Positions 33,633 through 59,524 are shown, numbered from the stretch's first letter. The stretch: 64,000 nucleotides of DNA from Spirochaetaceae bacterium (GCA_020632655.1 JACKFD010000004.1:192427-256426); one strand, 5' to 3'. A program made the numbers and translations. The notes: generated from the sequence alone by a model not told the origin.

Positions 33633-36017
33633 TCAGAGATTCTTGTACCGCCCCAGGTCGTAGATCGCCCCCTCCGTCGGCATCCGCTGTCTCACGTCCG
33701 CGTGGATCCAGTCGAGCAGCGGCCAGAAGCGTGGATCCGTCCGCCGAATGCCGAAGCGCGCGACGAGTGCGCGCATCGCCGCCGCGTCATGCACGCCGAG
33801 GAGCTGCTCCCGGAACGCGCCGAGCTCCTCCGCCGCGACGTCGAAGAAGAAGTTCGGATAGCTGCCGAGGGTGCCGGCGAAGAGGGTGACCTCGTCGAGC
33901 TCGGGCTGCAGTCGATCCTTTTCGCCGAACATCGACGCGACGTTCGTATGCGCGACGTCATGGGTCAGCGTGTAGACGTGACCGCGCTCGGGATCGTCGT
34001 CCGCGTGCACGCGCAGCCAGCTCACCTCGGGCAGATGCCGCACCCAGTCCCCCCGCCGTCCCGCGAGCGGCCGCAGGCCCGCATCCGCCTGCTCGGCGAG
34101 CGCGTCCGTCCCGGGCCGCAGGCAGTCCGATCCGTCGCAGCGATTGAGCAGGTCGTCGGGACCGGCGGCCTCCGGACTCCGTGCGCGCACCTGCGCGAAG
34201 AGCTCCTCGACGTAACGATCGGTCTCGAAGCGCACGCGCGTCCCGTGGCCCTCGCTGATCGGCCGGTTCACGAAGTGGTGGATCTCGTCCGTCGCGCCCT
34301 CGTACCAGGCGTCGCGCAGGGGCTGGCGCGCGGACTCGGGCAGGAACGCGAGCAGGACGTTCTCGCTCTGCATGCGCAGGTGGTCCATGTAGAGGCGGGT
34401 CGCGACCTGATGACCGAGGTTGCCGAAGACGTCGAAGCCGGCGACGAGGTCGTAGTAGATGCGCTCGAAGATCGGGTAGTCCATCACCCAGGCGGTCTCG
34501 GGCGGCGTGCCGATCAGACCGCGCTCGACGCTCGCGTTGTCGAAGTGCCGCCAGACGGTGAGCAGCGCATCGCGATCGTGCCCGTCGCCGTCCCAGATCG
34601 CCTCGAGCGGCGGACCCCGGCGCCTCGCGTCGAACGCCTCGTAGAGCTCCTCGCGTACGTCGAGATAGCGCCGCTGGTTCGCGGTGTGCTTGGCCCAGAG
34701 GCCTTCACCCGGGATCGCGAGGCTGCCGTCCTCCGCCGGGAGATCGAGCAGGGCCTTCGTGCGTTCGAGGTAGCGCGGGTCGTTGACGGAGAGGTCCCAG
34801 TCGGGGTCGAGGAAGGCGACCCAGAAGCGATCCTCGATCACGTCGACGGCGACCTGGCCGTGGCAGACGGGGCCGCGGATGAAGGTCGCGACGAAGTGGC
34901 GCGCGTCGTCGAGCAGGAACTGGTAGCGGGAGCGCGCGGGGATCGCGTCGAAGGTCTCGAAGGGGTTCGAGGCCTTCGCATGTCCGTAGGGCGGAAAGAC
35001 CTTGGCACTCCACTCGGGCTCGAGGAAGAGCGCACGCAGGCGCTCGAGCCGCTCGGGGCCGATCGGGTAGACGATATGCGTCTTGTGCACGAGGGTGTCG
35101 TCGATGCGCACGAGCCGGTACCAGAAGCGCGCTTCGCCCGGGTCGTCGTAGGGGCGGCGGGTGGCGATCTCGCGGGTCGGCTGGCCGGGCGGGGTCGACG
35201 AGCGGACGAGGCGGAAGAAGGGGCCGCTCGCGTGGGCCTCGAAGTAGAGGTGCGTGACGAACCAATGCTCGTAGAGGTAGCGGGCCGTGATGCGCTCGCG
35301 GAGCGAGTCGCCGTTCAGGAAGCGCTCCCAGCTCTCGACCTCGCGCGCGACGGCGGGATCGAGCGGGGCGCGCGGCGCGACGGAGGGTGCGCCCTCGCCG
35401 AGCCATGCGACGAGATCCGCGTACTCACCCTCGGCGAGCGGCGTCAGGCCGTAGGGCATGCCGCCGAGCGGATGCTCGTCGACGTAGGCCTCGAAGCGAT
35501 CGGCGACGGGGCAGGCGAGCTTGCGGTCGAGCGCGAGCGGGAAGTCTTCGGGCAGGCGTTCGCCGGGTGCGAGATGCGCGCTGCGACCGAGCGCAAGCAT
35601 GCGACCCATCACGCCGTCCGCGGTGCCCGCCGGTCCGTGCACCACGTCGTGGAAGCCGAGCGCCCGCCAGCCCGGCTCGTCGTGGGCGTCGACGTGGAGC
35701 CGGGTCGTGCGCTGCGGCGTCAGGCGCTTCGCGTCGTAGACCGCGTCGGGGCTCGCGCCACGGTTCACGCCTTCGGCGGAGCCGAGCTGCAGCTGGCAGG
35801 GCGCGTCGTAGCACGCGTGACACACGACGCAGCGATGGTCGAGGACCCAGCGCGCGTCGTGCTCCTCGGCGACGACCGTCCGGGCGACGACGGCCTCCGC
35901 GGCGTCCTCGGGCGAAGATGCGTCGTCGCGTCGACAGGCGATCAGGAAGAGGGACGCGGCGGAGAGCATGGCGACCGCGACGAGCGTCGCGCGGTCGAGC
36001 CGGAACGGAATGGACAT
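33633..36017 (-). CDS. cti: Fatty acid cis/trans isomerase (Cti family), periplasmic haem protein
   Basis: 794 aa with a signal peptide and the N-terminal haem site HRCVVCHACYDAPCQLQL. Overall resemblance to Pseudomonas/Vibrio Cti. Confidence 0.8.
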   Translation of the reverse strand: MSIPFRLDRATLVAVAMLSAASLFLIACRRDDASSPEDAAEAVVARTVVAEEHDARWVLDHRCVVCHACYDAPCQLQLGSAEGVNRGASPDAVYDAKRLTPQRTTRLHVDAHDEPGWRALGFHDVVHGPAGTADGVMGRMLALGRSAHLAPGERLPEDFPLALDRKLACPVADRFEAYVDEHPLGGMPYGLTPLAEGEYADLVAWLGEGAPSVAPRAPLDPAVAREVESWERFLNGDSLRERITARYLYEHWFVTHLYFEAHASGPFFRLVRSSTPPGQPTREIATRRPYDDPGEARFWYRLVRIDDTLVHKTHIVYPIGPERLERLRALFLEPEWSAKVFPPYGHAKASNPFETFDAIPARSRYQFLLDDARHFVATFIRGPVCHGQVAVDVIEDRFWVAFLDPDWDLSVNDPRYLERTKALLDLPAEDGSLAIPGEGLWAKHTANQRRYLDVREELYEAFDARRRGPPLEAIWDGDGHDRDALLTVWRHFDNASVERGLIGTPPETAWVMDYPIFERIYYDLVAGFDVFGNLGHQVATRLYMDHLRMQSENVLLAFLPESARQPLRDAWYEGATDEIHHFVNRPISEGHGTRVRFETDRYVEELFAQVRARSPEAAGPDDLLNRCDGSDCLRPGTDALAEQADAGLRPLAGRRGDWVRHLPEVSWLRVHADDDPERGHVYTLTHDVAHTNVASMFGEKDRLQPELDEVTLFAGTLGSYPNFFFDVAAEELGAFREQLLGVHDAAAMRALVARFGIRRTDPRFWPLLDWIHADVRQRMPTEGAIYDLGRYKNL

Positions 36018-37813: not shown

Positions 37814-38506
37814 TCAGGCAGAGCGTCGACGGGTCGCGAGTGCGAGCAGTCCGAGGCCCATCAGCAGAGCGGTCGTCGGCTCGGGGACCGCGGCGACGTC
37901 GACGCGCAGGCCGTTCAGGAAGGGCGAGGCGATCGTGGGGCCGTTGGCCGAACGACCCTGCACGAGCGCCGTTCCGGTCGCGTCCGCCACGACCCGGATC
38001 GTGAGCGTGTACTCGTCGAGGCTCTCGGGGGCCGTATTCGACGTGCTGCCGAAGTTGAGGATCTCACCGTTCCAGTCGCCGTTCCGCGGCGGCCCGAAGA
38101 CGCCCGCGTTCACGCTCGGGTAGTCGAAGGCCCAGAGCGTCACGTCGTAGGTCGCGTCGGCGACGAGACCGGAGAGCGTGATGTCGAAGCCCCGGTCGGC
38201 GGGTGGGATGCTCTCGTCCTCCGTGCCGATGAAGAAGAAGTCCCGCCACATGTCGTTCTCGTCGCCGCCACCGTTCTGGGCGCCGCGATCGCGCGCGCCG
38301 AGCGGATTGCCGAGGGGCAGGATCGAGAGCTGGATGCCCTCGCTCGTCGCCGCGAGGCCAGTCGTCGTGACGCCGACCCAGCCGGTCTGGACGGGGCCGT
38401 CGCCGAAGTCGAAGAGGGCCGGCAGGGCGCTCGCCTGGGAGGCCGGCAGGACGAGGAGTGCGGCGAGGATCGGGAGCAGCAGGAACGGACGGGAGAACGA
38501 CGGCAT
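37814..38506 (-). CDS. Secreted PEP-CTERM sorting-domain protein
   Basis: N-terminal signal peptide. The C-terminus VPEPTTALLMGLGLLALATRRRSA shows the PEP motif, a TM helix and a basic tail. Confidence 0.8.
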   Translation of the reverse strand: MPSFSRPFLLLPILAALLVLPASQASALPALFDFGDGPVQTGWVGVTTTGLAATSEGIQLSILPLGNPLGARDRGAQNGGGDENDMWRDFFFIGTEDESIPPADRGFDITLSGLVADATYDVTLWAFDYPSVNAGVFGPPRNGDWNGEILNFGSTSNTAPESLDEYTLTIRVVADATGTALVQGRSANGPTIASPFLNGLRVDVAAVPEPTTALLMGLGLLALATRRRSA

Positions 38507-47741: not shown

Positions 47742-48923
47742 ATGCTTGCGGGCATGTCGCCCCGACCGCAGGAGCCCCGCCCGTCCGCCCGTTCGCCGCG
47801 CGCGCCGTCTTCGTCGCGCACGCGCGGTGCATTCCGGGGCACGGCGACGCGTGGGCTGCTCCTGCTGCTGGTGCTCGCCGGCCTGCTCCCCGCCGCTCGG
47901 GTCGCGGGTGCGTTCGAACGGGGCGGGTCCGCGCCGATCGCTCCATCCGCTGCGGGCTGGCCGCGGCTGATCTCGCTCAACCCGTCGCTCTCCGCGATCG
48001 TGCTGCGACTCGGCGGCGGCGAGGCGCTGGTCGGTGTCGACGACTACACCGCGCGACTGCTGCCCGAGCTGGCGGATCGGCCGCGCGTCGGCGGGCTCTT
48101 CGATCCGAGCCTCGAGTGGGTCGTGGCGCTGCGGCCCGATCGCGTGCTGCTGGTCGCGGGTGTCGATCAACAGCGATACGGCGAGCAGCTCGCCGCGCTC
48201 GGCCTCGAGGTCGAGGTCTACCGCAACGAGCGCCTCGACGAGGTGCTCGAGAACGTGGCGCGCCTCGGACGGTTGCTCGGTCGGGAGCAGGCGGCGGCGG
48301 GCTGCATCGACTCGATCCTCGCGATGCGTGCGGCGGTCGCGGAGGCGACGGCCGAGCGGCCGCGGCCGGCGACCGTCGCGGTGCTCGACCGATCGCCGCT
48401 CTTCGTGGTCGGCGGCGAGACCTTCCTCGACGAGATGCTCGCGTCCGTCGGCGCCCGGAACCTCGGGCGCGCACTCGGGACCGGCTATCCGCGTGCATCG
48501 ACCGAGTGGCTGATCGCGGCGCGGCCCGAGCTGCTGCTCGACCTGACGCCGGGTGCGGAGCCGGACGCGGCGGACTACTGGACGCGCTGGCCGAGCCTGC
48601 CGGCGGTGGCGGAGGGGCGCGTGTTGAGGCTCGAGGCCAGCCGCATCAGCCTGCCGGGGCCGGATCTCGATCGCGCGCTGCGCGACCTGGCGGTCGCAGT
48701 GCATGGGTCGTCGATCGAGGCCGCGATCGACGCGGCGCTCGCGCAGGTGGCGCGCGACGCGGAGCGCGACGGGGCGGCCTCACGCGGGGTACGCGACGCG
48801 GAGCGCGACGGGGCGGCCTCACGCGGGGTACGCGACGCGGAGCGCGACGGGGCGGCCTCACGCGGGGTGCGTGCCACGGAGCGCGAAGGAGCGTTCGGGG
48901 GCGGGGAGCGGGTGGCGCGATGA
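47742..48923 (+). CDS. Class III (BtuF/FhuD-like) ABC substrate-binding protein with a repeat-containing C-terminal extension
   Basis: RLISLNPSLSAIVLRLGG...LVGVDDYT...LRPDRVLL is typical of cobalamin/siderophore/haem binding proteins. Followed by FecCD permease and ATPase genes. Confidence 0.85.
   Translation: MLAGMSPRPQEPRPSARSPRAPSSSRTRGAFRGTATRGLLLLLVLAGLLPAARVAGAFERGGSAPIAPSAAGWPRLISLNPSLSAIVLRLGGGEALVGVDDYTARLLPELADRPRVGGLFDPSLEWVVALRPDRVLLVAGVDQQRYGEQLAALGLEVEVYRNERLDEVLENVARLGRLLGREQAAAGCIDSILAMRAAVAEATAERPRPATVAVLDRSPLFVVGGETFLDEMLASVGARNLGRALGTGYPRASTEWLIAARPELLLDLTPGAEPDAADYWTRWPSLPAVAEGRVLRLEASRISLPGPDLDRALRDLAVAVHGSSIEAAIDAALAQVARDAERDGAASRGVRDAERDGAASRGVRDAERDGAASRGVRATEREGAFGGGERVAR
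48753..48869 (+). repeat. 39-bp in-frame tandem repeat, three copies plus a degenerate fourth
   Basis: CGCGACGCGGAGCGCGACGGGGCGGCCTCACGCGGGGTA at 48753-48791 and 48792-48830 is identical. The third copy (48831-48869) differs at its last base. Encodes (RDAERDGAASRGV)x3. Confidence 0.95.
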
Positions 48924-50892: not shown

Positions 50893-53291
<2,399 letters not shown>

Positions 53292-53551
53292 GGCCGCATC
53301 CGGGCCGGGGCCTTCCCCCGAGCCCGGCCGGGTCTTCGACCCAGCCCGTCCCGGCCTTCGGCCCGGGCCCGCCTCGGCGGAATTCCTGCAAGTTTCCAAT
53401 AAACCACTAATGGCCCTCGGCTGAATCACCGATGGGACACGCAAGTCGTGTGCAGGAAACGCGTAGGCACAGCCCGCGGATCCTGCCCGGCCGGATCGCG
53501 CGCCCTTCCGGGTGGGGCGGGTGCGCGCGACCGGACCGAGCCGAAGCGGGA

Positions 53552-54166
53552 ATGCAGGACGGGATGGGGAACCAGCAAAGACTGAACGTGCTCGTGGTGG
53601 ATCGGGACGAGGACACCCTCCTCCAGCTGAAGGAGCTGCTCACTCGACAGGGCTACAGCGTGACCTGCCTCGGCGAGCCCCTGCGCGCGCCGGAGGAGGT
53701 CCGCCAGAACCGCTTCCAGCTCGTCGTGCTCGACGTGTCCCCCGGCAGCGGCGGCGGCGAGGCCCTGGCGGCGATCCGCGGCTTCGACAAGGACGTCTGC
53801 GTGATCGCCACGACGGGCATCGCGTCGGTCGAGATGGCGGTCGAGACGATGAAGCACTCGGCCTTCCACTACCTGCAGAAGCCGCTCGACGACGACGAGG
53901 TGCTCGCGGTCGTGCGCGAGGCGATCCGCGACCGCGGTCTGCTCGTCGACCTCGAGACCCATCTCAACACGGAGATCGGCCGCCGCATCCGGACCCAGCG
54001 CCACGCGGCCGAGCTGACCCTCAAGCAGCTCGCCAACCGCACGGGCCTCTCGGTCAGCCTGATCTCGCAGATCGAGCTCGGCAAGAGCGCCGCGTCGATG
54101 TCGACGATGCACAAGCTCGGCGCCGCGCTCGGTGTCAGGATGACCTACTTCTTCGAGACGCTCTGA
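53552..54166 (+). CDS. Response regulator: receiver domain fused to an XRE (Cro/C1)-type HTH
   Basis: REC features: LVVDRDED, phospho-acceptor context LVVLDV, IATTG and LQKP. C-terminal HTH LTLKQLANRTGLSVSLISQIELGKSAASMSTMHKLGAALGV. Confidence 0.8.
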   Translation: MQDGMGNQQRLNVLVVDRDEDTLLQLKELLTRQGYSVTCLGEPLRAPEEVRQNRFQLVVLDVSPGSGGGEALAAIRGFDKDVCVIATTGIASVEMAVETMKHSAFHYLQKPLDDDEVLAVVREAIRDRGLLVDLETHLNTEIGRRIRTQRHAAELTLKQLANRTGLSVSLISQIELGKSAASMSTMHKLGAALGVRMTYFFETL

Positions 54167-54233
54167 TCGTCTTCGAGCGGGTCGGACGCCCAGGCGCCCG
54201 GCCCGCTATGCTCCCGCCCCGCGCCCCGCGCGC

Positions 54234-55349
54234 GTGGAGGGAGCCGCCATTCGCAGCGTCGAAGAGTCCAGACCGCGGCCGGGGCTGTCCGTTCCGGTGC
54301 TGACGATCCTCGACGAGGAGGGCGGCCTCCTCGAGGAGGACCAGCGCGCCCTCGTCCGCCACGTCGTCCAGGACGGCCAGGGCGCCGACATCCTCTTCTC
54401 CGCCGGCACGACCGGCGAGTGGGACAAGGTCGACAACGCGACCCGCCAGGCCGTGATCCGGGTCTGCGCCGAGGAGGTCGCGAAGCTGAACGTCGCGCTG
54501 CGCGCCGCCGACGGACGCGGCGTGGAGAGCTGGGCCGGCGTGACCGCGCCGACCGCCGAGGACACCCTCGCCAACCTCGAGTTCGCGATCGACTGCGGCG
54601 TCGACGCGGCCGTGCTCGCGCCACTCTCGATCCGCGGCGTCGAGGATCCGGTCCGATTCGTGCTGCGCGACGTCGCCGACCTGCTCGACGCCCGCTCGCG
54701 CCGCATCCCCGTCTTCCTCTACGACAACGCCGACATCGCCATCGACCCCCGCGTACCCCACATCCGCACGAAGCAGGTCAAGGCCATGAGCCGCCTCGAC
54801 TTCGTGCGCGGGATCAAGGTCTCCGCCTCGAACAAGGTGCTCGGCAACTACACCCGCGCCGCCAAGAGCTTCAAGGATCGCGGCGAGTTCGCGATCTACG
54901 TCGGCAACGCGATGCTGATCTTCGACATCTACCGGCCCTACCGCGGCTTCCTCGGCGTGCTGCAGGAACATTGGGATCGCTGGCGGCGCGCGGGCGGGAT
55001 GCCCGTCGGCGTCGTGTCGGGACCGGCGAACGCGCTGCCGCGGGAGTGGGCCTGGGCCTGGCAGGTCTGTCGCGCGGGCGACGAGGAGCGCATGGACCAG
55101 GCGCGCCGCGTCGTCGAGGGCTTCCGCGAGCGGACGGTCGCGGCGAGCGGCAAGCGGACGCTGGCCTGTCTCAAGCGGGCGCTCTGGCTCGAGGGCGTGA
55201 TCTCGAGCGCCGCCGTCGCGGCCGGCACGCCGGCACTCACGAACGTCGACGCGGAGCGCTTCGATCGTGCCTGGGACGAGGTGAAGGCGCTGGCCGCGCG
55301 GGAGATCCGCGCGCCCTGGCTCACGCGCTTCGAGCAGCGCTCGGCATGA
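54234..55349 (+). CDS. DHDPS/N-acetylneuraminate-lyase superfamily (class I, pyruvate-dependent) aldolase-like protein
   Basis: FSAGTTGEW (GTTGE motif), FLYDN and RGIKVSAS (Schiff-base lysine context). 371 aa, longer than DapA. Exact start uncertain. Confidence 0.75.
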   Translation: MEGAAIRSVEESRPRPGLSVPVLTILDEEGGLLEEDQRALVRHVVQDGQGADILFSAGTTGEWDKVDNATRQAVIRVCAEEVAKLNVALRAADGRGVESWAGVTAPTAEDTLANLEFAIDCGVDAAVLAPLSIRGVEDPVRFVLRDVADLLDARSRRIPVFLYDNADIAIDPRVPHIRTKQVKAMSRLDFVRGIKVSASNKVLGNYTRAAKSFKDRGEFAIYVGNAMLIFDIYRPYRGFLGVLQEHWDRWRRAGGMPVGVVSGPANALPREWAWAWQVCRAGDEERMDQARRVVEGFRERTVAASGKRTLACLKRALWLEGVISSAAVAAGTPALTNVDAERFDRAWDEVKALAAREIRAPWLTRFEQRSA

Positions 55350-57085
55350 GCGCACGCAAGACCTCGAAGCGCAGCGCTGCCCCGCGTTCGGCGGCGGGCG
55401 CGCCCTCGGCGACGGCACGCCCCGTGGACGCGGCGCAGGACGGATCGCGCGACCTCGAGCTGGTCGGCTTCGGCAGCATGGTCCTCGATCGCATCCATCG
55501 CACGCGCCGCGTGATCGGCGCGAACGAGAAGGCACTGCTCGACGCGGTCGACGCGCAGACGGGTCCGGTCCGCACGTGCGTCGGCGGGCTGATGCTGAAC
55601 CAGCTCGGCTGGGCGGCGCTCTTCGGGCTGCGCGTCGGGATCTTCGGCCGGCAGGCGGAGGACGAGGCGGGGCGCGTGCTGCGCGCGGCGATGGCCCGAC
55701 ACGGGATCGAGACGCATCTCGACCGGACGGCGAGCGGCAGCTCGATCGCCGAGATCTTCGTCGACGCCGCGGGCGAGCGGGCGATCTACATGGCCGCGGC
55801 GGGCACGGCGGAGACGCGGCCGCGGCACGTGCACGAGGATCACTCGGGCTTCGTCGCGCGGGCGGCGCGGCTCACGACCGAGATCTCGCAGCTGCCCCTC
55901 GACACGGCGCTCGCGGCGCTCGAGCTGGCGCGGGCGATGGGGATCGGGACCGTCGTCGATCTCGACGTGCGGCCGAGCGACGCGGTCGGGGTGCTGGGCG
56001 ATCGCGAGACCTTCGACCGCGTGCTGCGCGCGGCGGATCTGCTCAAGCCGACGGAGATCGCGGCGCGGGAGCTCTTTCCCGAGCTGGACTCGCTCGAGGC
56101 GCTCGCGCGGCGGATCCGCGAGGCGTACGGCGTGCCGCGTGTCGTGATGACGCTCGGCGAGGCCGGGGCGCTGCTCTCGGATGCCGAGGGCGAGCGGCTC
56201 GTCCCCGCGTATGGCGCGCGGGCGGTCGTGGACTCGACCGGGGCGGGGGACGCGTTCCTCGGTGGCTACCTCGCGGGCGAGACCCTCGGGCTCGCGCCGA
56301 TCGACGCCGTGCGGCTCGGCAACGCCTGTGGTGCGGCGTGTGTCGAGCGGGTCGGTGCCTTCCCGGACGAGCCGGAGGTGCTTCGTGCGCGGGTGCTCGA
56401 GCTCTACGCCGGGCCGGAGCCTGCGGACGCGCGCTGGGGCGAGGCGGTCGCGGCGAAGACGCAGGGTGCTTCGAGCGGGCGCGGGCCGGCGCAGGCGGGA
56501 CTTCGTGTGCTCGAGGTCGCCGCGCGGGAGATCGCGGCGCTGGCGGGGCGACACGATGGTGCGTCGATCCTGGCGGCGGCGGAGCTGATCGAGCGGGCCG
56601 AGGCGGGCGGGGGTCGCGTGCACGTGACCGGCGTCGGCAAGCCCGAGCACGTGGCGCACTACGCTGCGAGCCTGCTCGCGTCGACGGGCACGCCGGCAAC
56701 CTTCCTGCACGCGACCGAGTCGCTCCACGGCAGTCTCGGGCAGATCGTGCCCGGCGACGTCGTGATCGCGATCAGCAACAGCGGCACGACCGGAGAGTGT
56801 CTGCTCGCGGCGCGGGCCGTGCGCGACTACGGCGGACGGCTGATCGCCGTGACGGGCGGGCTGGGCTCGGCGCTGGCGGAGCTGGCGGACGTGACCCTCG
56901 ACGCGGGGGTGTCCGAGGAGGGCGGGCCGTTGGGTCTTGCCCCGCGGGCGAGCGTCGCGGCGGAGATCCTGGTGCTGGCGGCCCTGGGGGCGGTCCTGCA
57001 GGAGCGCCGGGGCCTCGACCGGAAGGCGTATGCGTCGCGGCATCCGGCGGGCGCACTCGGCAAGCAGGCGCGGGGCGAGTCCTGA
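55346..57085 (+). CDS. Fusion protein: PfkB-family carbohydrate kinase (N) + KpsF/GutQ-type SIS sugar-phosphate isomerase domain (C), no CBS pair
   Basis: PfkB signature VVDSTGAGDAFLGGYLAG. SIS core VTGVGKPEHVAHYAASLLASTGTPATFLHATESLHGSLGQI...VIAISNSGTTGE...LGLAPRASVAAEILVLAALG...SRHPAGALGK. ATGA overlap with the aldolase gene. Confidence 0.82.
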   Translation: MSARKTSKRSAAPRSAAGAPSATARPVDAAQDGSRDLELVGFGSMVLDRIHRTRRVIGANEKALLDAVDAQTGPVRTCVGGLMLNQLGWAALFGLRVGIFGRQAEDEAGRVLRAAMARHGIETHLDRTASGSSIAEIFVDAAGERAIYMAAAGTAETRPRHVHEDHSGFVARAARLTTEISQLPLDTALAALELARAMGIGTVVDLDVRPSDAVGVLGDRETFDRVLRAADLLKPTEIAARELFPELDSLEALARRIREAYGVPRVVMTLGEAGALLSDAEGERLVPAYGARAVVDSTGAGDAFLGGYLAGETLGLAPIDAVRLGNACGAACVERVGAFPDEPEVLRARVLELYAGPEPADARWGEAVAAKTQGASSGRGPAQAGLRVLEVAAREIAALAGRHDGASILAAAELIERAEAGGGRVHVTGVGKPEHVAHYAASLLASTGTPATFLHATESLHGSLGQIVPGDVVIAISNSGTTGECLLAARAVRDYGGRLIAVTGGLGSALAELADVTLDAGVSEEGGPLGLAPRASVAAEILVLAALGAVLQERRGLDRKAYASRHPAGALGKQARGES

Positions 57086-57142
57086 GCGCGACGGGCCTTC
57101 TGATCCCGGCCTGAAGCCGGGTCGAATCTCACTCAGGCCGGC

Positions 57143-58324
57143 GTGGCGGAGACCGATACCGGCTCCAGTCGATGTGGATCGCCCACGGACGAGCAGGAGC
57201 GGCCTGCCGGTGTGTCGTGGGACGGCCGATCGGCCCGGAGCCCGCAGCCGATGGTCCAGTCCCGCCCCGCCTCCTCCTCTCCTCCCGCGGCGCACCACCC
57301 CGGGTCGCCGCTCCCCGCCGACGACAGCTACGCGCGGGTCGCCGACGCCGAGCTCGAACGGGTCCTCACCTCCTTCGATACCTGTTATGTCTGGCGCTAT
57401 GGCAGCGTGCAGGAGGGTCTGCGCGACCTCTACGCCAAGGCCAAGCGCGACCAATGGGACGCGGCGCTCGCCCTCGACTGGTCGATCGAAGTCGATCCCG
57501 AGGAGCCGATCCTGCCCGAGGCGATCAATCCGCTGCTCGGCTTCGCGCCCTACGAGCGGATGGACGAGCGCGAGCAGAAACGAGTGCGGCATTGCCAGAT
57601 CGCGTGGCAGCTCTCGCAGTTCATGCACGGCGAGCAGGGCGCGATGATCGTGGCGTCGCAGCTCGTGGGCGCGGTGCCGTGGATGGACGCGAAGCTCTAC
57701 GCGTCGAGCCAGACGATGGACGAGGCGCGCCACGTGGAGGTCTTCTCGCGCTACCTGCGGACGAAGCTCGAGTGGGAGTGGCCGGTCAACCCGAACCTCA
57801 AGCGGCTGCTCGACACGATCATCGGCGACGTGCGCTGGGACTTCAAATACCTCGGCATGCAGATCCTCGTCGAAGGGCTCGCGATGGCGGCCTTCGCGAA
57901 CCTGCATCAATTGACGAACGAGAAGCTGCTCAAGGACCTGATCCACCTCGTGATGCGCGACGAGTCGCGGCACGTGGCCTTCGGTGTGCTCTCGCTCCAG
58001 GACTTCTACGCGGACATGAGCGGGTCGGAACGGCGGGATCGCGAGGACTTCGTGATCGAGGCCTGCGAGCTGATGCGCGATCGGCTGGTCGGGGAGGAGA
58101 CGGCGGACGCCTTCGGCTTCGACCGCGAGCCCTACCGCCAGGCGATGGTCGAGTCACCGATCCTGCAGCTCTTCCGACAGCAGCTCTTCTCGCGCGTCGT
58201 GCCGAACCTGCGTCGGCTCGGGCTGCTCTCGCCGCGGGTCCGCACGGCCTTCGACCGGCTCGGCATCCTGCAATTCGAGGACGCGGATCCGGCGGCGCAG
58301 GACGCGGCGCTCGGGCTCGTCTGA
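57143..58324 (+). CDS. Ferritin-like di-iron carboxylate protein (AurF / R2-like oxidase type)
   Basis: Four-helix ligand pattern: FMHGEQGA, MDEARHVEVF, LVEGLAMAAF and MRDESRHVAF (E...ExxH twice). The N-terminal ~60 aa are low complexity, so the true start may be the ATG at 57251. Confidence 0.7.
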   Translation: MAETDTGSSRCGSPTDEQERPAGVSWDGRSARSPQPMVQSRPASSSPPAAHHPGSPLPADDSYARVADAELERVLTSFDTCYVWRYGSVQEGLRDLYAKAKRDQWDAALALDWSIEVDPEEPILPEAINPLLGFAPYERMDEREQKRVRHCQIAWQLSQFMHGEQGAMIVASQLVGAVPWMDAKLYASSQTMDEARHVEVFSRYLRTKLEWEWPVNPNLKRLLDTIIGDVRWDFKYLGMQILVEGLAMAAFANLHQLTNEKLLKDLIHLVMRDESRHVAFGVLSLQDFYADMSGSERRDREDFVIEACELMRDRLVGEETADAFGFDREPYRQAMVESPILQLFRQQLFSRVVPNLRRLGLLSPRVRTAFDRLGILQFEDADPAAQDAALGLV

Positions 58325-58405
58325 GCGCCTGTCGACGTCGACTCCCGCCCGCGATCCCGGGGGGCCACGAAGCGAGGAGGCCGAGGGGCTCCGACCGCTC
58401 CGCCA

Positions 58406-58434
58406 TTGACGCTCGAGGACGCCAAGTCTAAGGT
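58406..58434 (+). promoter_or_regulatory. Candidate sigma70-type promoter for tRNA-Ala
   Basis: TTGACG-N17-TAAGGT, about 90 nt upstream of the tRNA. Confidence 0.4.
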
Positions 58435-58522
58435 CCGCCGGTCGAAAACCCGCTCGACGAGGCGATCGGCGCCGGACCCCAGGCCGGAGCGCCCCTCGAC
58501 CGAGCGATGATCCCGATTCCAT

Positions 58523-58598
58523 GGGGCCGTAGCTCAGCTGGGAGAGCGTCGCGTTCGCAACGCGAAGGTCGGCGGTTCGATCCCGCTCGGCTCCACCA
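58523..58598 (+). tRNA. tRNA-Ala (anticodon CGC), CCA encoded
   Basis: Hand-folded cloverleaf: acceptor GGGGCCG/CGGCTCC with the G3:U70 Ala identity pair, D arm GCTC-AGCTGGGA-GAGC, anticodon arm TCGCG-TTCGCAA-CGCGA, T arm GGCGG-TTCGATC-CCGCT, then ACCA. Confidence 0.93.
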
Positions 58599-58605
58599 CC
58601 TTGTC

Positions 58606-58644
58606 GAGACGGCGCGCACGCCCTGCGCGCCGTCTCGCGTTTCG
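58606..58644 (+). terminator. Stem-loop terminator after tRNA-Ala
   Basis: Perfect 13-bp stem GAGACGGCGCGCA / TGCGCGCCGTCTC with loop CGCCC, followed by GCGTTTCG. Confidence 0.7.
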
Positions 58645-58651
58645 GGACCCG

Positions 58652-59524
58652 CTAGACGAGGCCGAGCTGCAGCCAGCTCGCGACGGCGCCGACGAAGAGC
58701 GCCCCGTCGACCGCGACGTGCCCGTAGCGCTCCTCCGCCCGGAATCCCACGAGCGCGCCGAGCTGGGCGACCGGGATCCAGGCGAGGGCCGGCACGGGCG
58801 AGGGCCCGAAGAGTGCTGCGGCGACGCCGAGGCCGGCCGCACCCCGCGCGAGATCGAGCACCCGGCCCGGATGCGCGCGCAGCAGCTGCGCCTCGCCATC
58901 CCGCAGATTCGACGCGATCAGGTTCGCGACCAGCGTTGGCAGCAGCACGGCGACGACGGCGCCGCCCCGTGCGCCGACCCCCACCGAGAGCCACGGGATG
59001 CCCACGCACGCCGCCGTCCAGGCCGCCGACACGTAGAGCGTCTTCGCTGCGGGCACGTGCTTCAGCCGGCGATGGAGCAATCCGAGTGCGCCGACGACGG
59101 CGCAGAGTCCGAGGACCCGGCCCGGCGCCTCGACGAGGGCGATCCCGCCGGCGGACGCGGCGAGCGCGAGCCCCACCACGAGGCGTTCGCGATGTCGCGC
59201 GACGAAGGCCGTACGACGTGGCGAGGTCGCGCGATCGCGGGTCACGTCGCGCAGCCGGTCGATCGTGTAGACGCAGAACGCGCCCGCCGCCGTCAGCGTC
59301 GCCCAGCGCACCGGATCCGGCGCCCCGAGCACCCGGCTCGCGACCAGCGAGAGCGCGGCCCCGATCCCGGCCGCGAGCGCGCTCGAGTAGGCGAGGCCGT
59401 CGAGCAGGCGCAGCAGGCCGTCCGCGACGCCCTGCACGGCGGTGCGCGGCGACGGGGCGTCGGTCGTCGGGGCGGCCGGGGCGGCCGGGGCGGCCGGGGC
59501 GATGGCGACGGGCGTTCGGGACAT
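58652..59524 (-). CDS. Polytopic membrane protein, UbiA-prenyltransferase-like (tentative)
   Basis: Multiple TM segments. IDRLRDVTRD resembles the first Asp-rich motif of the UbiA superfamily. The N-terminus has an APAAPAAPAAP repeat encoded by tandem GGGGCGGCC units. Confidence 0.5.
   Translation of the reverse strand: MSRTPVAIAPAAPAAPAAPTTDAPSPRTAVQGVADGLLRLLDGLAYSSALAAGIGAALSLVASRVLGAPDPVRWATLTAAGAFCVYTIDRLRDVTRDRATSPRRTAFVARHRERLVVGLALAASAGGIALVEAPGRVLGLCAVVGALGLLHRRLKHVPAAKTLYVSAAWTAACVGIPWLSVGVGARGGAVVAVLLPTLVANLIASNLRDGEAQLLRAHPGRVLDLARGAAGLGVAAALFGPSPVPALAWIPVAQLGALVGFRAEERYGHVAVDGALFVGAVASWLQLGLV

Follow-up and report, generated by a model that had tools for sequence, protein, structure and literature searches.

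A candidate arabinose-5-phosphate-centred module of an aldolase and a PfkB kinase-SIS isomerase fusion in uncultured Myxococcota

A gene for a class I aldolase of the DHDPS/NAL superfamily and a gene for a PfkB kinase fused to a KpsF/GutQ-type SIS isomerase were found side by side in the window, a stretch of 64,000 nucleotides deposited under Spirochaetaceae bacterium (GCA_020632655.1, JACKFD010000004.1:192427-256426). The fusion protein is 100% identical to P0001, a protein of a Myxococcales MAG. As judged from their sequences, the three predicted activities are encoded together, and sometimes in a single chain, in hundreds of uncultured Myxococcota. They are tentatively read here as a constitutive module centred on arabinose 5-phosphate (A5P) that connects pyruvate with a pentose and a KDO-type ulosonate. 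A role in KDO salvage, put forward in an earlier note on this DNA, appears a reasonable proposal.

Gene order and genomic setting

The genes for enolase and for a secreted hypothetical protein lie 5' of the module and share its strand (Table 1). As the earlier note described, an AT-richer island precedes three genes on one strand; its GC content of 45% compares with 70.9% for the window and falls in the bottom 0.1% among 40-nt windows. The island may represent a promoter region, and a scan for the sigma-70 consensus identified no site. The first gene of the three encodes a response regulator, for which the ATG at 53564 is most likely the start, as its homologues are 200-201 amino acids in length. 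The regulator was found in 52 of the 80 loci, and no histidine kinase was identified near its gene.

Table 1. Positions of the module and its neighbouring features in the window
Feature	Position	Strand	Basis or remark
Enolase-like ORF	51031..52353	+	Context gene; Pfam Enolase_N and Enolase_C in homologous loci
AT-richer island	53381..53420	.	Intergenic, 5' of the regulator gene; 45% GC
Response regulator, REC + XRE-type HTH, 200 aa	53564..54166	+	PF00072 2.3e-16; PF01381 3.1e-10
Aldolase, predicted class I (Schiff-base), remote DHDPS/NAL subfamily	54234..55349	+	PF00701 29.1 bits
PfkB kinase::SIS isomerase fusion, 579 aa	55346..57085	+	Translation, Pfam, NCBIfam
PfkB (ribokinase-like) kinase domain, residues 55-339	55508..56362	+	PF00294 119.7 bits
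KpsF/GutQ-type SIS domain, residues 423-574, without CBS pair	56612..57067	+	TIGR00393 124 bits
AurF-like di-iron protein	57143..58324	+	PF11583 7.7e-14

A gap of 67 nt had been reported between the regulator and the aldolase, which is correct when counted from the stop at 54166 to the GTG at 54234. However, this GTG overlaps a GGAGG (Shine-Dalgarno) motif at 54236-40, and the conserved start is likely the ATT at 54249-54251, the codon directly before a conserved RSVE, so the gap is probably 82 nt. The ATGA shared by the aldolase stop and the fusion start was confirmed at 55346-55349, and a 4-nt overlap of this type is possible in 46 of 71 loci. On the 3' side the neighbour varies, as the AurF-like gene follows the module in only 24 of the 80 loci.

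The module sits in core, origin-proximal housekeeping DNA. In a tblastn search, enolase was located 5' of it in 75 of the 80 loci, with an enolase-aldolase gap of 5-168 nt in eight species, and the aldolase and enolase had median identities to the window of 69% and 74%, respectively. The origin-proximal position, the enolase gene on the 5' side, and a conservation close to that of enolase suggest a core function rather than an inducible island. The neighbours of the module comprise enolase, the secreted hypothetical protein, the RR-XRE regulator, the AurF-like protein, and a siderophore/B12-type ABC system. Within ~8 kb of the module, no transporter, glycosidase or KDO hydrolase, or repressor of a sugar or sugar-acid type was found.

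Domain assignments and catalytic residues

Profile and structure comparisons upheld the assignment of all three domains to a NAL-family aldolase, a PfkB kinase, and a KpsF/GutQ-type SIS domain. The join of kinase and isomerase was recovered as noted earlier, with the PfkB domain at residues 55-339, the Pfam match of SIS at residues 424-547, and the motifs DSTGAGDAFLGGYLAG at 296, GVGKPEH... at 429, LGLAPRASV at 529, and SRHPAGALGK at 564.

The identification of the SIS domain as an arabinose-5-phosphate isomerase (API) is strongly supported by its profile matches. The TIGR00393 (KpsF/GutQ) model scored 124 bits over its positions 1-152 of 268, followed by KdsD with 116 and GutQ with 115.5 bits, compared to 37 bits for HxlB/PHI, 25-30 for GmhA, 29 for GlmS, 22 for MurQ, and 21 for PGI/PMI. 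The domain hence falls in the A5P-isomerase clade, as the earlier note had suspected, and its best PDB matches are the APIs 5uqi, 2xhz, and 3etn. In E. coli KdsD numbering, the catalytic residues K59, H88, E111, E152, and H193 occur without exception across two lineages, in all 35 of the SIS domains compared, the window protein among them. To our knowledge, every characterised member of the KpsF/GutQ clade is an A5P isomerase, and KDO metabolism is the sole established metabolic role of A5P.

The fusion protein contains no CBS pair and, with 124 bits, does not reach the whole-protein TIGR00393 cut-off of 203.7. The pair, already described as missing, appears to be truly absent because the protein stops five residues past the profile match. 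CBS-less APIs of 198-220 amino acids with solved structures were among the SIS matches, such as the E. coli CFT073 c3406-type API (5uqi) and the Bacteroides fragilis API (3etn). The module SIS shares its profile clade and five catalytic residues with KdsD, GutQ, KpsF, and these CBS-less enzymes; in contrast to known APIs, it forms the C-terminal half of a PfkB fusion and is invariably paired with, and at times fused to, a DHDPS/NAL-type protein. No description of such an architecture was found in the literature searched.

By its sequence relationships, the PfkB domain is ribokinase-like. It exceeded the PF00294 gathering score of 25.8 bits by a wide range (119.7 bits), its best profile matches are ribokinases, and its best PDB match is the ribokinase 6znx (7e-19). 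The GG pair, TG[AC]GDA, and the catalytic Asp of the PfkB family were invariant in 30 sequences. In an alignment to an E. coli RbsK reference sequence, the GG pair and TGAGDA of the kinase are retained, residues equivalent to D16, N46, E143, and D255 appear to be present, and hydrophobic residues occupy the positions of N14 and K43. The NXXE motif of the Mg/phosphate site is absent; the aligned positions read T-E-I-A, and only the preceding Lys is invariant. The domain scored 89 bits with the ribokinase equivalog TIGR02152 (cut-off 299.65) and has an incomplete set of ribose ligands, and no equivalog model assigned it to a specific kinase family; KDG-kinase models gave 29-53 bits and rfaE gave 46 bits. 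KDG kinases (KdgK) carry a GE motif where ribokinase-like kinases have GSxxxD. The N-terminal motif of the module kinase is GSxxxD, which is of the ribokinase type and unlike that of KdgK.

The aldolase is more remote from characterised families. Its PF00701 match covers the N-terminal part only, and the GTTGEW and GIKVSAS motifs reported earlier are located at residues 58 and 193. Its AlphaFold model has a confident DHDPS/NAL fold (pLDDT 90.5), and the best PDB match of the model is the Corynebacterium glutamicum NAL 5c54 (TM 0.71/0.84, 20% identity). A total of 590 PDB matches were obtained at E <= 1e-3; all 50 of the 50 matches listed are DHDPS/NAL-family entries, and among the matches listed the identity to solved structures is 15-20%. 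In an hhalign alignment, GTTGE and Y163 correspond to S47/T48 and Y137 of NanA. The TIM barrel, Lys, Tyr, and GxTGE that define the class I aldolases of the superfamily are all present, and T59, T60, Y163, and the Schiff-base K195 occur without exception in the clade (37 of 37 members). On the basis of the modelled fold and these residues, the aldolase looks catalytically competent. In contrast, the scores against curated cut-offs were 23.4/206 for dapA, 19.1/382 for nanA, 20.2/374 for KdgD, and 21.8/397 for the HpaI type, which places the aldolase in none of these four subfamilies.

Occurrence of the module in three lineages

In one Myxococcota clade, the aldolase gene precedes the PfkB::SIS gene at every informative species locus (69 of 69). 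A second lineage encodes the domains as single-chain aldolase::PfkB::SIS and aldolase::SIS proteins, and in a third lineage, within the Acidobacteriota, an aldolase-like gene adjoins a stand-alone API that lacks CBS domains and retains all five KdsD catalytic residues. The consistent pairing, the single-chain fusions, and the adjacency in the Acidobacteriota lineage indicate a functional coupling of the three activities. The co-occurrence anticipated in the earlier note was thereby observed, and none of the bioinformatic outcomes it had named against its proposal was encountered.

The earlier interpretation is sustained in part. Its strict order of action from aldolase through kinase to isomerase is questionable. 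Four relatives (P0413, P0415, P0417, and P0419) consist of a predicted active aldolase fused to an API with no kinase, so a kinase placed between aldolase and isomerase is a poor fit. Other relatives have a kinase::API, or an API alone, with a catalytically dead aldolase domain, which shows that the chemistry of the aldolase can be dispensed with. The API was kept in every relative in which the kinase or the catalytic residues of the aldolase have been lost.

Proposed reactions and alternative readings

In the tentative A5P-centred reading, the C-terminal SIS domain would interconvert A5P and ribulose 5-phosphate, the step that is strongly supported by sequence. The fused PfkB domain would transfer phosphate to O5 of a free pentose, which is most likely D-arabinose, and so yield the isomerase substrate. 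The translationally coupled aldolase would reversibly cleave a KDO-type 3-deoxy-2-ulosonic acid to pyruvate and arabinose, with the latter either free or 5-phosphorylated. The net effect would be a connection between a KDO-type sugar acid and D-arabinose on one side and pyruvate and the pentose-phosphate pathway on the other. In the Myxococcota clade, the module may recycle the KDO/A5P pool or keep it in balance as a core-genome function, with the net direction going either way, rather than serve inducible nutrient catabolism. Points that count against this reading are the lack of a transporter, KDO hydrolase, or sugar-acid regulator in the vicinity, the missing N14, K43, and NXXE equivalents of the kinase, the kinase-less aldolase::API relatives, the relatives with a dead aldolase domain, and the biosynthetic type of the neighbours in the second lineage.

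The NanA-NanK-NanE system of sialic-acid catabolism follows the same logic, with a class I aldolase of the NAL superfamily encoded together with a sugar kinase and an isomerase or epimerase of phosphosugars. However, the module kinase is of the PfkB and not the ROK family, a SIS isomerase takes the place of NanE, and neither a transporter nor a NanR-type regulator accompanies the module. The module also lies in the core genome behind enolase, and its aldolase scores 19 bits with the nanA model against a cut-off of 382. GmhA with HldA/HldE in ADP-heptose synthesis is likewise a biosynthetic pairing, in which a PfkB kinase acts on the same phosphosugar as a ketose/aldose isomerase of the SIS type. 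The module differs from it in an API-type SIS domain (124 versus 25-30 bits), a lower score for rfaE than for ribokinase (46 versus 89 bits), and the lack of a linked nucleotidyltransferase.

The same architecture could act on another sugar, with the aldolase directed to KDG/KDPG-type substrates, KDN, DAH, or a pentonate, the kinase to a different sugar, and the API-like domain drifted to another phosphosugar. The low identity of the aldolase to characterised enzymes, its scores far under every equivalog cut-off, and the lack of an equivalog match for the kinase are in line with this. Stand-alone proteins from more distant parts of the aldolase family also occur in non-phosphorylative sugar-acid contexts; for example, P0263 lies beside an FAA hydrolase and a GFO/IDH dehydrogenase. 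In addition, the archaeal semi-phosphorylative Entner-Doudoroff pair is composed of a PfkB KDG kinase and a NAL-family KD(P)G aldolase, the same superfamilies as in the module, and provides a precedent for a NAL-family aldolase that splits a phosphorylated 2-keto-3-deoxy acid. That pair, however, has no isomerase partner, and the N-terminal motif of the module kinase is of the ribokinase and not of the KdgK type. A different sugar appears unlikely overall, given that every API catalytic residue is retained and that cleavage of KDG or KDPG needs no isomerase.

An anabolic direction, in which the API makes A5P from ribulose 5-phosphate and the aldolase condenses it with pyruvate to KDO-8-phosphate or a related ulosonate phosphate, would replace or supplement the PEP-dependent KdsA and leave the kinase to salvage free pentose only. 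The kinase-less aldolase::API fusions would suffice alone for such a route. It would also agree with the universal conservation of the module in the core genome beside, or co-transcribed with, enolase, with the absence of catabolic accessories nearby, and with the biosynthetic type of the second-lineage neighbours (an RmlD-like reductase, a flippase-like protein, and a TMEM260-like GT-C). Linkage of kdsA and eno is common in Proteobacteria, which adds to this side. Nevertheless, the route is improbable: the thermodynamics of aldol additions of pyruvate are unfavourable, enzymes of the NAL family usually work in the catabolic direction, the conserved kinase would have a weak role, and the variants with a dead aldolase would need KdsA regardless. 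A tblastn search for kdsA returned no match in 1.46 Mb of DNA that covers the syntenic region only, and kdsA may lie elsewhere in these genomes.

The isomerase may instead be the essential part, such that the fusion would serve the clade as a housekeeping counterpart of KdsD in the synthesis of KDO for LPS, the PfkB domain and the aldolase-like protein would be mainly structural or regulatory partners that stand in for the CBS pair, and aldolase catalysis would be secondary. Only the API catalytic residues are invariant across every architecture, the PfkB domain is missing from some close relatives, and SIS is more conserved than PfkB within the fusion. Moreover, two lineages still keep full-length aldolase domains that lack the Lys, Tyr, and GTTGE, either beside the API or in one chain with it. 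In contrast, every fusion examined carries intact catalytic motifs in its PfkB domain, and the invariant catalytic residues of the window-clade aldolase (37/37), together with a conservation equal to that of the SIS domain, argue for real catalysis; a mainly isomerase-centred role is given a low probability.

The setting argues against an inducible, nan-like operon for sugar-acid catabolism, since the module has no linked transporter, hydrolase, or repressor, lies in origin-proximal core DNA behind enolase with near-enolase conservation, and is present in 69 of 69 informative loci rather than patchily.

The aldolase reaction of the A5P-centred reading corresponds to that of KDO aldolase (EC 4.1.2.23), which cleaves KDO to D-arabinose and pyruvate and was reportedly described by Ghalambor and Heath in 1966. 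The likeness is one of reaction only, and the module enzyme may use the 8-phosphate instead. The activity continues to be cited with no gene attached to it (PMC12199768), and neither a gene nor a sequence for it was on record in the literature searched. It is conceivable, although rather doubtful, that the aldolase represents the first gene of a KDO-type ulosonate aldolase, either the orphan EC 4.1.2.23 or a class I pyruvate-dependent KDO-8-phosphate aldolase/synthase. With a new D-arabinose 5-kinase::A5P isomerase fusion, it would then constitute an A5P-centred pathway that has not been described before and belongs to the core functions of an entire class-level Myxococcota clade, the aldolase domain having become a non-catalytic partner of the isomerase in some lineages.

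Domain identities of the aldolase, kinase, and isomerase

The assignments proposed in the earlier note for the three domains of the module all held in profile and structure comparisons, and each motif it quoted was found where it had been placed. The isolated SIS domain scored 124, 116, and 115.5 bits against KpsF, KdsD, and GutQ, respectively, while it reached 37 bits for 6-phospho-3-hexuloisomerase (PHI), 25-30 for GmhA, 29 for GlmS, 22 for MurQ, and 21 for PGI/PMI. These scores ruled out PHI, GmhA, AgaS/GlmS, MurQ, and PGI/PMI as identities of the domain. The closest solved structures were D-arabinose-5-phosphate (A5P) isomerases, namely 5uqi (4e-28), the SIS domain of E. coli KdsD (2xhz, 6e-25), and the B. 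fragilis enzyme 3etn. Additionally, residues K59, H88, E111, E152, and H193 of KdsD, which we take to be catalytic and whose numbering was checked on the 2xhz alignment, were invariant in 35 of 35 relatives. The profiles, structures, and residues thus place the domain among the A5P isomerases (APIs) and not in another SIS clade, the outcome that the earlier note had named as fatal to its reading. The match covered positions 1-152 of the 268 in the KpsF/GutQ profile; since the fusion protein terminates at that point, the CBS pair is absent, as had been noticed from the sequence. The chains of 5uqi (198 aa) and 3etn (220 aa) are also too short to include one. Within the KdsD/GutQ/KpsF family, the isomerase of the window would be a CBS-less kind of member.

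The kinase domain was nearest to the ribokinases (TIGR02152, 89 bits against a cut-off of 300; PDB 6znx, 7e-19), and it was classified as a PfkB member with no equivalog match. It retains the ribokinase-type GSxxxD motif, the GG pair, equivalents of N46, E143, and D255, and TGAGDA, while equivalents of N14 and K43 and the NXXE motif are missing. These motifs suggest that the putative substrate is a neutral furanose or a pentose, more than a keto-acid. An identity as KDG kinase or HldA was unsupported by profile scores, structure matches, and motif comparison.

The aldolase was predicted to fold as a DHDPS/NAL barrel (pLDDT 90.5), and its best PDB match was the C. glutamicum sialate lyase 5c54 (TM 0.71/0.84), with an identity of only 20%. 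Its scores fell far under the dapA, nanA, KdgD, and HpaI cut-offs, and assignments to DapA, NanA, KdgD, and HpaI were ruled out by equivalog scores and identities of 15-20%. T59 and T60 of the GTTGE motif, Y163, and the Schiff-base K195 were invariant in the window's clade; hhalign paired the two threonines with S47/T48 of NanA and Y163 with its Y137. Only 249 matches at E <= 1e-3 were found among 1.84 billion representative proteins, and the family is a small, isolated DHDPS/NAL subfamily outside every named one.

Locus layout and translation signals

Features of the module and its surroundings in the window
Feature	Position	Strand	Remarks
Origin-proximal core DNA	1-33000		ATP synthase a, delta, alpha, gamma, beta, epsilon; gyrA, gyrB, dnaN, yidC, parA, parB; thymidylate kinase; Rieske/KshA-like oxygenase
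Fatty-acid cis/trans isomerase gene	33633-36017		PF06934, 827 bits
PEP-CTERM-tailed protein	37814-38506
Peripla_BP_2 binding-protein gene	47742-48923
39-nt repeat in Peripla_BP_2 gene	48753-48893		C-terminus; 3.6 copies, 94% matches; encodes repeats of GASRGVRDAERD
22-nt unit GGCCTTCGACCCGAGCCCGCCCC	53309-53378		intergenic, just 5' of the AT-rich island; about 3 copies, 75% matches
AT-rich island	53381-53420		45% GC
Response regulator, 200 aa	53564-54166	+	REC + XRE-HTH (REC + HTH_3 by Pfam/NCBIfam)
DHDPS/NAL-family aldolase gene	54234-55349	+	PF00701, 29.1 bits, N-terminal portion only
PfkB::SIS fusion, 579 aa	55346-57085	+	PfkB residues 55-339 (119.7 bits), SIS 424-547 (Pfam, NCBIfam)
AurF-like di-iron protein	57143-58324	+	PF11583, 7.7e-14; directly 3' of the fusion; in only 24/80 related loci
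tRNA-Ala (CGC)	58523-58598	+	between the AurF-like gene and the next genes; sole tRNA in the window

The AT-richer island reported ahead of the three genes was borne out, as its GC content compares with a window mean of 70.9% and lies in the lowest 0.1% of 40-nt windows. The overlap of the aldolase stop with the start of the fusion, as ATGA, was likewise seen in the sequence. The regulator probably starts at ATG 53564, which yields a protein of the same length as its homologues. The gap of 67 nt between regulator and aldolase applies if GTG 54234 is counted as the start. However, this GTG overlaps the Shine-Dalgarno sequence GGAGG (54236-40), and the codon preceding the conserved aldolase N-terminus RSVE is ATT (54249-54251); with this ATT start and its upstream GGAGG, the true gap is probably 82 nt.

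Among the window and loci L006-L085, which encode relatives, the codon preceding RSVE was ATT in 24 (the window included), CTG in 21, GTG in 16, ATG in 13, and TTG in six. An SD-like GGAGG was located 8-10 nt 5' of this codon in 58 of the 81, and in 20 of the 46 non-canonical cases, no in-frame canonical start occurred upstream before a stop. Hence, the aldolase appears to initiate at a non-canonical codon across most of the clade, which may reflect tuned or IF3-sensitive translation. A scan of 52300-58700 identified no consensus promoter and no terminator, and a hairpin 3' of the fusion stop folded no better than shuffled sequence (z = -1.5).

Conservation in Myxococcota and relatives in other lineages

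When GTDB species genomes were scanned with an aldolase alignment, 386 loci with a relative were returned. The best 80 of these had identities of 64-85% and were nearly all titled Myxococcota or Deltaproteobacteria. A protein labelled Myxococcales (P0001) was 100% identical to the PfkB::SIS fusion, which assigns the window to a Myxococcota metagenome-assembled genome. Several metagenome-assembled genomes (L006, L007, L009, L026, L029, L045, and others) are titled uncultured Spirochaetaceae or Spirochaetales bacterium, and L080 is titled Chloroflexota. These records carry the Myxococcota-type syntenic locus with aldolase identities of 77-85%, and the titles are probably labelling or binning errors.

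The pairing of aldolase and kinase::SIS, on which the earlier note had staked its reading, was conserved throughout: the fusion lay directly 3' of the aldolase in 69 of the 69 loci with enough downstream DNA, and the 4-nt stop/start overlap was possible in 46 of 71. Enolase was upstream of the aldolase in 75 of the 80 loci. The response regulator (52/80) and a secreted hypothetical protein (67/80) are dispensable. In eight species, enolase ends just 5-168 nt before the aldolase, which makes co-transcription with this glycolytic housekeeping gene likely. Relative to the window proteins, median identity was highest for enolase (74%), followed by the aldolase (69%), the SIS domain (65%), PfkB (56%), and the hypothetical protein (36%). 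The window consists of housekeeping DNA close to the origin, with dnaN, gyrB, gyrA, yidC, parAB, and ATP synthase genes, and neither a sugar transporter nor a glycosidase nor a sugar-type repressor was found within about 8 kb of the module. KdsA, KdsB, and the CBS region of KdsD from E. coli gave no tblastn match in 1.46 Mb of DNA, a search that covered this one syntenic region only.

In a second lineage of 28 protein clusters, the activities are joined in single chains of four architectures. These included aldolase::PfkB::SIS (P0262 group) and, without the kinase, aldolase::SIS (P0413, P0415, P0417, and P0419), both with active-site residues kept, as well as aldolase::PfkB::SIS (P0414, P0302, and P0418) and aldolase::SIS (P0288 and P0287) with a dead aldolase domain. 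In P0414, P0302, and P0418, GTTGE is lost, the Tyr is replaced by Asp or Glu, and the Lys by Leu, Val, or Ile. The API residues are intact across all four architectures. The neighbours encode an M23 peptidase, a small conserved ORF, an RmlD-like reductase, a DUF3800-like protein, a flippase-like protein, and a TMEM260-like GT-C protein with TPR repeats, sometimes with B12-radical-SAM genes; the setting is of a biosynthetic or envelope type, not a catabolic one. In L086-L088, L091, L093, and L094, these occur in the order M23 peptidase, 63-79-aa ORF, aldolase fusion, reductase, DUF3800-like, flippase-like, GT-C, and Peripla_BP_2, with optional HpnJ/BchE-like B12-radical-SAM genes, and the L086 cluster adjoins squalene-hopene cyclase, an HpnH-like gene, and ispH. 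The radical-SAM genes had hinted at 5-deoxyribose salvage or hopanoid synthesis, but this link was dropped, as they are missing in L094 and API chemistry requires a 5-phosphate.

The third lineage belongs to the Acidobacteriota ('Ca. Acidoferrales'). Its aldolase-like gene, in which Leu takes the place of the Lys, is arranged tail-to-tail with the gene of a stand-alone API that lacks the CBS pair and shares 43% identity with the SIS domain of E. coli KdsD; a PfkA-type kinase gene follows. The distant stand-alone active family members P0241 and P0263 had no SIS or PfkB neighbour. Dead aldolase-like domains were kept full-length beside or fused to an intact API in two separate lineages, at L086, L087, and L093 (P0414, P0302, P0418, P0288, and P0287) and at L095-L097 (P0421). 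Aldolase domains lacking the Schiff-base Lys, the Tyr, and GTTGE may serve the isomerase as pseudo-enzyme partners, which would make them a case of an enzyme domain kept as the partner of another enzyme.

Order of the activities and proposed role

Operon structure, translational coupling, and domain fusions jointly show that the aldolase, kinase, and API work together, in agreement with the main prediction of the earlier note. The constant element of the module is the A5P isomerase; aldolase catalysis and the kinase were each lost independently in some relatives. These independent losses, with the API always kept, are modestly best fitted by an aldolase and a kinase that both touch the node of A5P and ribulose-5-phosphate: the aldolase would act on A5P or on a product of A5P, while the kinase would supply the pentose phosphate. 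The strict order of aldolase, kinase, and isomerase that had been proposed fits less well, since active aldolase::API fusions exist without a kinase. A chain from KDO kinase through a KDO-8-P aldolase to the isomerase also fits less well, as it does not accommodate the kinase::API fusions with a dead aldolase. This comparison of orders relies on few metagenomic sequences, in which absent parts could be encoded elsewhere.

The position in the core genome, the linkage to enolase, a conservation close to that of enolase, and the lack of uptake and release genes argue for a constitutive role and against an inducible nutrient island. The module could serve to recycle the KDO/A5P pool or keep it in homeostasis, or it could serve in synthesis. 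Pyruvate class I aldolases usually have a catabolic role; this and the presence of a kinase make salvage slightly more likely as the direction than synthesis by a pyruvate-dependent KDO-8-P synthase. The reading of the earlier note is supported in part, namely in its domains, in the API clade, and in the conserved coupling. The context leans towards housekeeping, with KDO as a candidate substrate only.

The only known fate of A5P is KDO synthesis for the outer membrane, and KDO breakdown has reportedly lacked a gene ever since the activity was described in 1966. KDO aldolase (EC 4.1.2.23) is still cited as a gene-less activity (PMC12199768). The papers searched described no KDO aldolase gene, KDO catabolic gene set, D-arabinose 5-kinase, or module of PfkB, API, and DHDPS. 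The module shares its working logic, though not membership, with NanA-NanK-NanE, and it is reminiscent of the archaeal pair of PfkB and KD(P)G aldolase and of the GmhA and HldA pair without belonging to either.

An API is connected in three independent ways (operon, translational coupling, and domain fusion) to a new aldolase of the NAL family and to a ribokinase-like kinase, which provides a concrete set of proteins, cheap to assay, as candidates for an old orphan activity. A positive result would assign the orphan KDO aldolase and define a route from D-arabinose/KDO into the pentose-phosphate pathway, or alternatively reveal a PEP-independent route to KDO-8-phosphate. Since a large uncultured Myxococcota clade carries the module universally, in an operon-like unit with enolase, it probably matters to the envelope or the central carbon economy of this clade.
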